From the IMG/VR virus record IMGVR_UViG_3300001605_000008, positions 96,001 through 160,000 of that record: DNA of 64,000 nucleotides; one strand, written 5' to 3'. A model generated the notes under the pieces. The model saw only the letters and a list, made by a program, of their open reading frames with translations, searched no databases and had not been told where the DNA came from. The translations under genes and the position numbers were made by a program. The stretch comes from a virus. Shown here piece after piece: positions 1,974 to 3,025 of this stretch (its first letter is position 1; every line of letters begins with the position of its first letter).

Positions 1974-2810
1974 ATGAACAACAACCCACTGATGCAATAC
2001 TTCCGGCAGCCCGCGATCTACATACGCCTGCCCAGCCAAGGAAAATTCTACCCTGAAGATGCTATACGCATCACCCCAAATGGCGAATATCCGGTGCTGC
2101 CCATGACCACCATAGACGAGATCACTTATCGCACACCAGATGCACTGTTCAACGGCGAAGCCGTGATATCAGTGATACAGAGCTGTGTGCCCAATATCAT
2201 CAATGCCTGGGGCATGCCGGCCATGGACATTGACACAGTACTGATAGCCATACGCATCGCCACCTACGGTCATGCCATGGAGATCAATGCCAAGTGCCCC
2301 AGCTGCGAGCACGAAAGCGATTTTGATCTTGATCTCCGACAGGTTCTGGCCCAGATCAAACCCGGCGACTATGATCAGTCCGTGACTGATGGTGACATAG
2401 AAGTGTTTTTCCGGCCCATGGATTATCGCCAGATCAACAACAACAATCTCTTACAGTTTGAAGATCAGAAAATGCTGATGTCTGTGGAAGATTCCGATGT
2501 TCCAGTAGAAAACAAAATGTCCCAGCTGGGAGAAATACTGAAAAAGATCACTGCTGTGACCATACGTTCACTGGCACAGAGCATATCCGCGGTAAAAACA
2601 CCCCAGGCCACTGTTACAGACACAGCACACATCACTGAGTGGTTGGAAAACTGCGATCGCAAGGTGTTTGGGATGTTGCGAGATCACATCATCTCTGCCA
2701 AACAGGCCAGCGAGATCAAACCCTTGACCATCACTTGCTCGGCCTGCGGTCATGAATACGAGCAGATGTTTACCTTGGACATGACCAGTTTTTTCGGGGA
2801 CGCCTCCTGA
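1974..2810 (+). CDS. T4 gp26-like baseplate hub / tail assembly chaperone (278 aa)
   Basis: Real start MNNNPLMQYFRQPAIYIRLPSQG (track start 1704 is antisense shadow of the tape measure); motifs LIAIRIATYG, two CxxC pairs (CPSC, CSAC), C-terminal ...DMTSFF typical of gp26-like proteins of large T4-like phages. Confidence 0.7.
   Translation: MNNNPLMQYFRQPAIYIRLPSQGKFYPEDAIRITPNGEYPVLPMTTIDEITYRTPDALFNGEAVISVIQSCVPNIINAWGMPAMDIDTVLIAIRIATYGHAMEINAKCPSCEHESDFDLDLRQVLAQIKPGDYDQSVTDGDIEVFFRPMDYRQINNNNLLQFEDQKMLMSVEDSDVPVENKMSQLGEILKKITAVTIRSLAQSISAVKTPQATVTDTAHITEWLENCDRKVFGMLRDHIISAKQASEIKPLTITCSACGHEYEQMFTLDMTSFFGDAS
2789..2795 (+). other. Candidate -1 ribosomal frameshift heptamer T TTT TTC
   Basis: In-frame X XXY YYZ heptamer 13 nt before the stop codon; the -1 frame is open from here through the 2828-3025 ORF. 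Confidence 0.6.
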
Positions 2811-2827
2811 CCTCGGACGCAGAAAAA

Positions 2828-3025
2828 GTGTCTGACATGGTAGATAAGATGGATCGGGAGGCTGACGCGATACGCAATGAATCATTGAAACTGGTATGGT
2901 ACATGCGTGGTGGTGTGACTTATTCTGAAGTGATGAATCTGGGTTCTCGAGAAAGAGAAATGATGGGATCGTTCATCAAAGAGAATTTAGAAACCACCAA
3001 AAAGTCGGGCCTTCCGTTTTTCTGA
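2828..3025 (+). CDS. gp51-like small baseplate/tail assembly protein; probably the C-terminal part of a frameshift fusion with 1974-2810
   Basis: 65-aa ORF (LVWYMRGGVTYSEVMNL...) directly after the gp26-like gene, GTG start without obvious SD, lies in the -1 frame. Confidence 0.6.
   Translation: MSDMVDKMDREADAIRNESLKLVWYMRGGVTYSEVMNLGSREREMMGSFIKENLETTKKSGLPFF

Follow-up and report, generated by a model that had tools for sequence, protein, structure and literature searches.

Comparative evidence for a probable programmed -1 frameshift in the gp26/gp51-family hub-assembly gene of a jumbo phage related to T4

A gp26/gp51-family gene with an open -1 frame at its end

We have analyzed a stretch of 64,000 nucleotides (nt), hereafter the window, which comprises bases 96001-160000 of the 191,865-bp viral record IMGVR_UViG_3300001605_000008 (CheckV completeness 53%), with a focus on a gene on its plus strand that is related to the baseplate-hub assembly proteins gp26 and gp51 of phage T4 and on a slippery heptamer close to the end of this gene, at which ribosomes may change into the -1 frame. 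The open reading frame (ORF) at 1974..2810 (+) starts with an ATG at 1974, stops with a TGA at 2808-2810 and encodes a protein of 278 amino acids (aa), which matches PF12322 (T4_baseplate) between residues 57 and 274 with an E-value of 3.8e-19 and 69.7 bits (gathering cut-off 24.5) and phrog_150 ('baseplate hub') with an E-value of 5.5e-20. A sequence profile search of the PDB returned no match. The family is rich in metagenomic members: 4717 homologs were obtained at E <= 0.001, and almost all of the 120 matches listed have a length of 278 aa. Two CxxC pairs of zinc-ribbon-like character (C108/C111 and C255/C258) and F274 show no or almost no variation in family alignments, and the window protein contains the C-terminal F-F/F-x-LL motif of the family; the T4 counterparts of these motifs read ...CPECGK...FFELL in gp26 and ...CPKC...FKLL in gp51. 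The nearest cultured relatives, at 27-33% identity, are the jumbo phages Atu_ph07, Phosso, PA5oct, 121Q/PBECO4, GAP32, XacN1, SCTP-2 and RsoM2USA. The window phage is a jumbo phage that is distantly related to T4, not a classical T4-like phage, and the ORF is best read as its single gp26/gp51-family (PF12322) gene, presumably coding for a baseplate-hub assembly chaperone.

In the 0 frame, the ORF ends with ...ACC AGT TTT TTC GGG GAC GCC TCC TGA. The heptamer T_TTT_TTC, the proposed frameshift site, is located at 2789-2795 (+) in X_XXY_YYZ phase, four codons before the 0-frame stop. An open stretch in the -1 frame extends from 2756 to a TGA at 3023-3025; it reads FFRGRLLTSDAEKVSDMVDK... from the junction, without a stop before 3023-3025, and continues over a longer distance as FFRGRLLTSDAEKVSDMVDKMDRE...WYMRGG...TTKKSGLPFF. 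The -1-frame continuation at 2795..3025 (+), which counts 76 codons after the two phenylalanines (FF) encoded by the heptamer, has the predicted character of a helix-loop-helix extension resembling the tail of gp51, and the small ORF on its own matches neither Pfam nor PHROG families. The predicted products thus comprise 278 aa in the 0 frame and 350 aa (274 + 76) in the trans-frame form. In this anatomy we recover what a preliminary description of the stretch, made from its letters alone, had reported, namely a slippery heptamer at the same position and in the same phase, a -1 frame that runs without a stop through the small ORF to 3025, products of 278 and about 350 aa and the junction peptide DMTSFFRGRLLTSDAEK.

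The heptamer by itself is not a rare sequence. On both strands of the window TTTTTTC is found 34 times, compared to 12 copies expected from shuffles, none of which reached 34, and the significance of the site at 2789 therefore comes from its conservation. The long frames of the window contain 107 slippery heptamers in phase, with a median open run in the -1 frame of 14 codons, and among these only the heptamer at 2789 is located at most 10 codons from a stop with a -1 frame that remains open for at least 40 codons beyond.

No terminator-like site was found between the 0-frame stop and the extension, from which we conclude that both parts are located on one transcript. A terminator-like hairpin at 3037-3055 with a T-rich tail (3037..3065, +) directly follows the end of the extension. 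At the other end, a possible late promoter TATAAATA (1935..1942, +), which we take to be the T4 late-promoter consensus, is located 39 nt upstream of the ATG; it occurs once in the window, and 19 of 66 related loci contain it 37-43 nt ahead of the gene.

Conservation of the heptamer and of the -1 frame

The junction was compared in two sets of related metagenomic loci. The first set contains 80 IMG/VR loci at 56-82% amino-acid identity, which together with the window amount to 81 sequences with 69 distinct junctions, and the second, more diverse set contains 64 distinct loci of the split type, with the tail in the -1 frame. A few contigs are common to both, and the total is about 130 distinct loci. 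The heptamer is found in phase in all 81 sequences of the first set, in 64/64 loci of the second (as T_TTT_TTC) and in each of the 13 cultured phages examined. An alignment of homologous loci had been proposed in the preliminary description as a check for a slippery heptamer and an open -1 linker, and both are conserved in every split-type locus that we have examined.

The conservation is most pronounced at the nucleotide level. Each of the 81 sequences of the first set reads NNT TTT TTC, and the codon preceding the two phenylalanines is exclusively AGT, AAT or GAT, whereas in the remainder of the gene the share of AGC, AAC and GAC among those codons amounts to 44-50% and TTC is likewise freely used. 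Among the 69 distinct loci, the heptamer and the following G constitute the sole invariant run of at least 5 nt in 540 aligned nt, and the wobble positions inside the heptamer are invariant in 3/3 cases compared to 0/100 of the upstream third-codon positions, which show a mean entropy of 1.57 bits. From the heptamer onward, the periodicity of the variability in the same loci changes to the -1 frame. This is illustrated by position +8, the second codon position in the 0 frame and the third base of an invariant arginine codon in the -1 frame, which is highly variable (1.75 bits), and by the linker past the 0-frame stop and ahead of any shared methionine, where the -1-frame periodicity amounts to 1.15, 0.82 and 1.55 bits at the three codon positions. 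Counted from FF, the extension is exactly 78 aa long in 78 of 81 loci (contig ends cut it in the remaining three), and the -1 linker FFRxRLL is kept while the 0-frame stop varies between 1, 4 and 6 codons past the heptamer (in the second set and in locus L070 of the first). In seven loci of the first set, a stop in the -1 frame immediately precedes the heptamer on its 5' side. As judged from these alignments, the -1 tail is under purifying selection.

The same arrangement is found in cultured phages. All nine jumbo phages investigated (Atu_ph07, Phosso, Xoo-sp13, PA5oct, 121Q, GAP32, XacN1, SCTP-2 and RsoM2USA) contain T_TTT_TTC or T_TTT_TTT in phase, followed by homologous -1 tails of 59-85 aa. 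These tails carry no annotation in PA5oct (L085, 2049-2273) and RsoM2USA (L090, after 1983), and in Atu_ph07 (L001, 3831-4055) the tail is annotated from a late ATG as an ORF of 40 aa. The cyanophages P-SSM2, S-PM2 and Syn9 and the vibriophage KVP40 each have one PF12322 gene, annotated as 'gp26', which ends with AGT, TCT or GAT followed by TTT TTC, one more codon and a stop, and their annotated short 'gp51' is located in the -1 frame, in the case of Syn9 with a junction that contains no ATG. These four phages thus resemble the window phage in having a single family gene that ends with NNT TTT TTC, one codon and a stop, and a small -1-frame ORF that matches only the C-terminus of gp51, whereas they differ in their annotation as two genes and in their shorter tails of about 60 aa, which carry PF28602. 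The gp51 of cyanophages and marine vibriophages was previously described to have about 20% of the length of T4 gp51 and to match only its C-terminal region, with no mention of a frameshift for this short protein (Sullivan et al. 2010, PMC3037559).

Relationship to gp26 and gp51 of T4

T4 gp51 (249 aa) matches PF12322 with an E-value of 3.9e-52 and T4 gp26 (208 aa) matches the same model, which identifies the two proteins as paralogs. T4 contains two PF12322 genes, compared to one each in Atu_ph07, PA5oct, 121Q, S-PM2, P-SSM2, Syn9 and KVP40. The T4 gp26 protein terminates with ...KEFFELL directly ahead of its stop codon, with its FF encoded in GAG TTC TTT and thus without a slippery heptamer, and T4 gp51 runs past the FF-type motif as DVFKLLVNPDEIF... 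(FKLLVNPDEI...). In T4, gene 26 is followed by gene 25, and gene 51 is a full-length gene on the other strand. A correspondence of the small ORF in the window to a neighboring position of genes 26 and 51 in T4 was considered and rejected, as the two T4 genes are divergent and gene 25 is located next to gene 26. The window gene thus resembles the T4 pair in that all belong to PF12322, in that gp26 stops at FF-x-LL like the short product and in that the tail of gp51 aligns with the -1 extension. It differs in that T4 carries two divergent full-length genes, whereas the window phage has one gene from which both forms would be made by the proposed frameshift, and in the length of the extension, which is 76 aa compared to about 50 in gp51.

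The relationship between the extension and gp51 was quantified by profile comparison. An alignment of the extension profile to T4 gp51 tails by hhalign gives a probability of 77%, an E-value of 2e-5 and a score of 28.3, compared to 15.0 at most when the columns were shuffled 60 times, and a full-length local alignment of trans-frame products with gp51 covers the tail with a probability of 93.6% and an E-value of 2e-7. The T4 gp51 tails align with cyanophage trans-frame tails with a probability of 96.8% and an E-value of 2.6e-10, starting from the FR/FK residues. In precomputed annotation, PF28602 is assigned to both T4 gp51 tails and cyanophage tails; it was not among the matches when T4 gp51 was scanned against our local copy of Pfam. 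The labels that the preliminary description had given to the two ORFs are both borne out by these comparisons, since the body of the 'gp26-like' ORF belongs to PF12322, the family of both T4 gp26 and gp51, and the counterpart of the 'gp51-like' ORF is probably the C-terminal tail of gp51, the part of the protein to which the short 'gp51' of cyanophages and KVP40 also corresponds (PMC3037559).

Natural fusions and a structure model

In a search of the full library with the 78-aa extension as query, about 20 cluster representatives with a length of 319-351 aa were identified that consist of a PF12322 body with the extension as its in-frame C-terminus. Five loci from a lineage of uncultured phages in IMG/VR (L103-L106 and L108) contain such in-frame fusions as one gene encoding 336-357 aa. 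Their junctions read TAT TTT CGG, CAA TTT AGA, ACT TTC CGA and CGT TTT CGT, with one phenylalanine codon and no run of six T, and the absence of this run from in-frame fusions ties the heptamer to the change of frame. A change by two nucleotides in the T-run would convert the fused into the split state and vice versa. Together with the full-length T4 gp51, the natural fusions also indicate that the tail works as a C-terminal domain.

For structure prediction, we used one of the natural fusions (P0150) in place of the trans-frame protein. Its AlphaFold2 model shows a single compact unit with a predicted local distance difference test score (pLDDT) of 96 and a predicted template modeling score (pTM) of 0.92, in which the extension is predicted to fold into a helix-loop-helix comprising residues 276-304 and 318-338. 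A Foldseek search with this model revealed no match at E <= 0.001, and its best VIA Z of 5.6 was obtained for generic helix-loop-helix proteins. The comparison of the PF12322 body of P0150 with the tail assembly chaperone of HK97 (2ob9) gives a Foldseek E-value of 1.6 and a template modeling (TM) score of 0.43 on the target, which is within noise, and a VIA Z of 4.3 with 97 of 104 residues aligned, which is in the noise range; the resemblance does not count as evidence but offers a lead for closer structural work.

Proposed mechanism of the frameshift

Taken together, the comparative data strongly support the programmed -1 frameshift between the gp26-like and the gp51-like ORF that had been put forward in the preliminary description, and we assign a probability of roughly 0.85 to the interpretation that a programmed -1 ribosomal frameshift generates two forms of a hub-assembly chaperone, a short one resembling gp26 and a long one resembling gp51. 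In the proposed mechanism, most ribosomes would read from 1974 to 2807 and stop at 2808 to release the short form of 278 aa, whose end corresponds to the end of T4 gp26. A minority would slip on U_UUU_UUC at 2789-2795, where the phenylalanine tRNAs in the P and A sites would each re-pair one base back on UUU in a tandem slippage, and would subsequently read the -1 frame, starting with the arginine codon CGG, to 3025. The resulting long form of 350 aa would contain 76 additional residues folding into a helix-loop-helix module, the presumed counterpart of the C-terminal tail of T4 gp51. The efficiency of slippage would in this way set the ratio of short to long form from one gene, for which T4 uses the two paralogous genes 26 and 51.

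A possible stimulatory stem of 7 bp (2802..2862, +), formed by GCCUCCU (2802-2808) and GGGAGGC (2856-2862) and enclosing an inner hairpin, begins 6 nt past the heptamer. The minimum-energy fold of the region surrounding this stem has an energy of -32.4 kcal/mol and a z-score of -3.06. Across 34 relatives, 84.5% of the cells of the 7-bp stem are paired, compared to 40-62% when the stem is slid along the alignment, a difference that is no more than suggestive, and its covariation is weak. RNAalifold detects no strong consensus structure on the relatives (-0.5 kcal/mol), Rfam contains no match and inspection by eye revealed no Shine-Dalgarno (SD)-like stimulator upstream of the heptamer.

Another candidate slip site in the window, CA[A AAA AAG] at 57951-57957 (-), is located in phase in an ORF of 350 aa at 57852-58904 (-), 32 codons ahead of its stop. 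The -1 frame leads from there directly into the next ORF, of 416 aa, at 56671-57921 (-), which shares 70 nt with the first and carries an ATG of its own at 57921. Both ORFs are without a PHROG match, and the two may be joined by a second frameshift or simply overlap.

Alternative explanations

Several observations weigh against a programmed frameshift in this gene and the relationships derived from it. All support for the trans-frame protein is comparative. Conservation of FF at the protein level, which extends to the KEFFELL end of T4 gp26, explains part of the T-run, and a strongly conserved RNA structure downstream of the heptamer was not found among the relatives. The link between the extension of the window clade and the gp51 tail is moderate (77% for the T4 tails), and the extension profile shows no significant match to the low-diversity profile of cyanophage gp51 (E-value 0.07); because of this weak match we consider homology of the extension to the gp51 tail as likely but not firm. 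Finally, an ATG overlaps or adjoins the 0-frame stop in Atu_ph07 and Phosso (both ATGA), P-SSM2, S-PM2 and KVP40 (TAATG), and 63 of 69 loci have a codon at +60 that could serve as a start, the only such codon to be widely shared. The latter two findings would fit a pair of separate genes, with the small ORF being translated alone, by termination-reinitiation or coupling at GTG 2828, ATG 2837 or ATG 2849, and with the T-run as a by-product of the Phe-Phe motif. Such translation would be helped by the location of these GTG and ATG codons 18-39 nt past the 0-frame stop and would agree with the databases, which annotate the small ORF as its own gene. It would leave unexplained why the wobble positions of the heptamer are invariant, when T4 gp26 encodes the same FF as TTC TTT, and why the linker upstream of any start codon is kept in the -1 frame. 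Loci L079 and L084 contain no ATG, GTG or TTG in the stretch that extends from the preceding -1-frame stop to the WxMRGG motif and, together with Syn9, have no usable start. Where start codons are present, their SD pairing is weak: in the window (2828..2851, +) the duplex energies are -3.2, -0.4 and -2.8 kcal/mol for GTG 2828, ATG 2837 and ATG 2849, respectively, compared to -5.3 kcal/mol at the gp26-like ATG, and the mean at the +60 start is -2.55 kcal/mol compared to -5.07 kcal/mol at the gene's own ATG. With natural fusions and T4 gp51 presenting the tail as a C-terminal domain, we judge separate genes to be a very unlikely explanation of the locus, although the ATG codons at or near the stop and the +60 start in many relatives imply that separate initiation could coexist with slippage.

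The same S-F-F-R fusion would also be obtained by normal translation if RNA polymerase added one U in the run of six T. Besides the identity of the product, such transcriptional slippage would be favored by the longer runs in relatives, with seven T in Xoo-sp13 and XacN1 and nine in RsoM2USA. For efficient slippage of bacterial RNA polymerase, six T is short, and the run is always found in X_XXY_YYZ phase with a fixed T at the wobble position, as tandem tRNA slippage requires, an argument that is weak since the conserved FF codons fix the phase as well. On balance, a transcriptional origin of the fusion appears improbable. Practically negligible is the chance that the arrangement reflects a homopolymer sequencing error or a decaying gene: TTTTTTC is a frequent sequence in the window (34 copies), but the same arrangement recurs in about 130 distinct metagenomic loci and 13 cultured phage genomes, and its -1 tail bears the marks of purifying selection. 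Ribosomal slippage at 2789-2795 thus remains our preferred explanation.

Comparison with known frameshifts in phage chaperones

T4 gp26 and gp51 are tabulated as 'hub assembly chaperones', gp51 being required yet not present in the particle, and the need for the family in hub assembly comes from T4 genetics alone (Leiman et al. 2010, PMC3004832, Table 2). A conserved -1 frameshift of tail assembly chaperones is known from gpG/gpGT of phage lambda (Xu, Hendrix, Duda 2004). According to a review, this G-T frameshift is conserved in all long-tailed phages 'except T4' (Atkins et al. 2016, PMC5009743). The two systems are alike in the proposed -1 slip near the 3' end of a chaperone gene, in the short and C-terminally extended forms that share an N-terminus and in the absence of G and GT from the lambda particle as of gp51 from that of T4. 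They differ in location, as the window gene is not found between tail tube and tape-measure genes. Tail-assembly-chaperone families were not found among Pfam or PHROG matches at E <= 1. We thus regard the likeness to G/GT as an analogy of logic, not as homology. Of the proposal in the preliminary description that the pair is a G/GT system of a T4-like phage, the logic of a short and a long form stands by analogy, whereas the identity with G/GT does not, as there is no family match, the resemblance to the HK97 fold is within noise and the gene is not located beside tube or tape-measure genes; the phage itself is a jumbo relative of T4, which carries full-length paralogs without the heptamer. 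A further parallel is offered by E and E+E' of phage P2, a contractile-tailed myovirus with a -1 chaperone frameshift on a T-rich heptamer (TTTTTTG), which differs in protein family and gene position.

Genomic surroundings

The gp26-like gene is flanked by an ORF on the opposite strand that exceeds 641 aa and has no annotation and by a methyltransferase-like ORF, and spike and structural genes are at least 13 kb away in the window. Close to the hub-chaperone gene we find radical-SAM-like ORFs at 5340-6461 (-) and 6485-7987 (+) and an SbcC/SbcD-like nuclease pair at 9059-10822 (-) and 12126-13142 (-). A module of very large structural ORFs covers 15944-39561; it includes a 771-aa ORF at 19267-21582 with a gp5-like OB domain and a 2985-aa ORF at 30604-39561 with FG-GAP and CBM_5_12 matches.

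Implications for T4-related phages

We have found no paper or database record that describes a frameshift in the gp26/gp51 family, the PRFect paper included, within an incomplete coverage of the literature. The proposed chaperone-type -1 frameshift would thus be new, in a protein family and a phage group where we have found none described. In a wider interpretation, to which we give about even odds, a single hub-chaperone gene with a T_TTT_TTC -1 frameshift would be ancestral and general in T4-related phages, including cyanophages, KVP40 and jumbo phages, the T4 genes 26 and 51 would have originated from its duplication with each frame fixed in one copy, and the pair would be functionally equivalent to lambda G/GT, acting on the tape measure (gp29) and the hub. 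If true, the textbook exclusion of T4 ('except T4') from the phages with a tail-chaperone frameshift would no longer stand.

How T4 gp26 and gp51 contribute to hub assembly has been obscure for decades. If one gene with a slip site yields both forms in most T4-related phages, the two proteins would be the short and the long member of a chaperone pair, with a mechanism that would depend on their ratio and could be tested. In this case the annotation would be wrong for thousands of 'gp51' mini-ORFs and for several gaps left without annotation in cultured jumbo phages, and the family would provide a large and clean training set for gene callers and frameshift predictors. The fused, split and duplicated versions that are found in nature would then constitute an evolutionary series in which the need for two forms of the hub chaperone could be tested.

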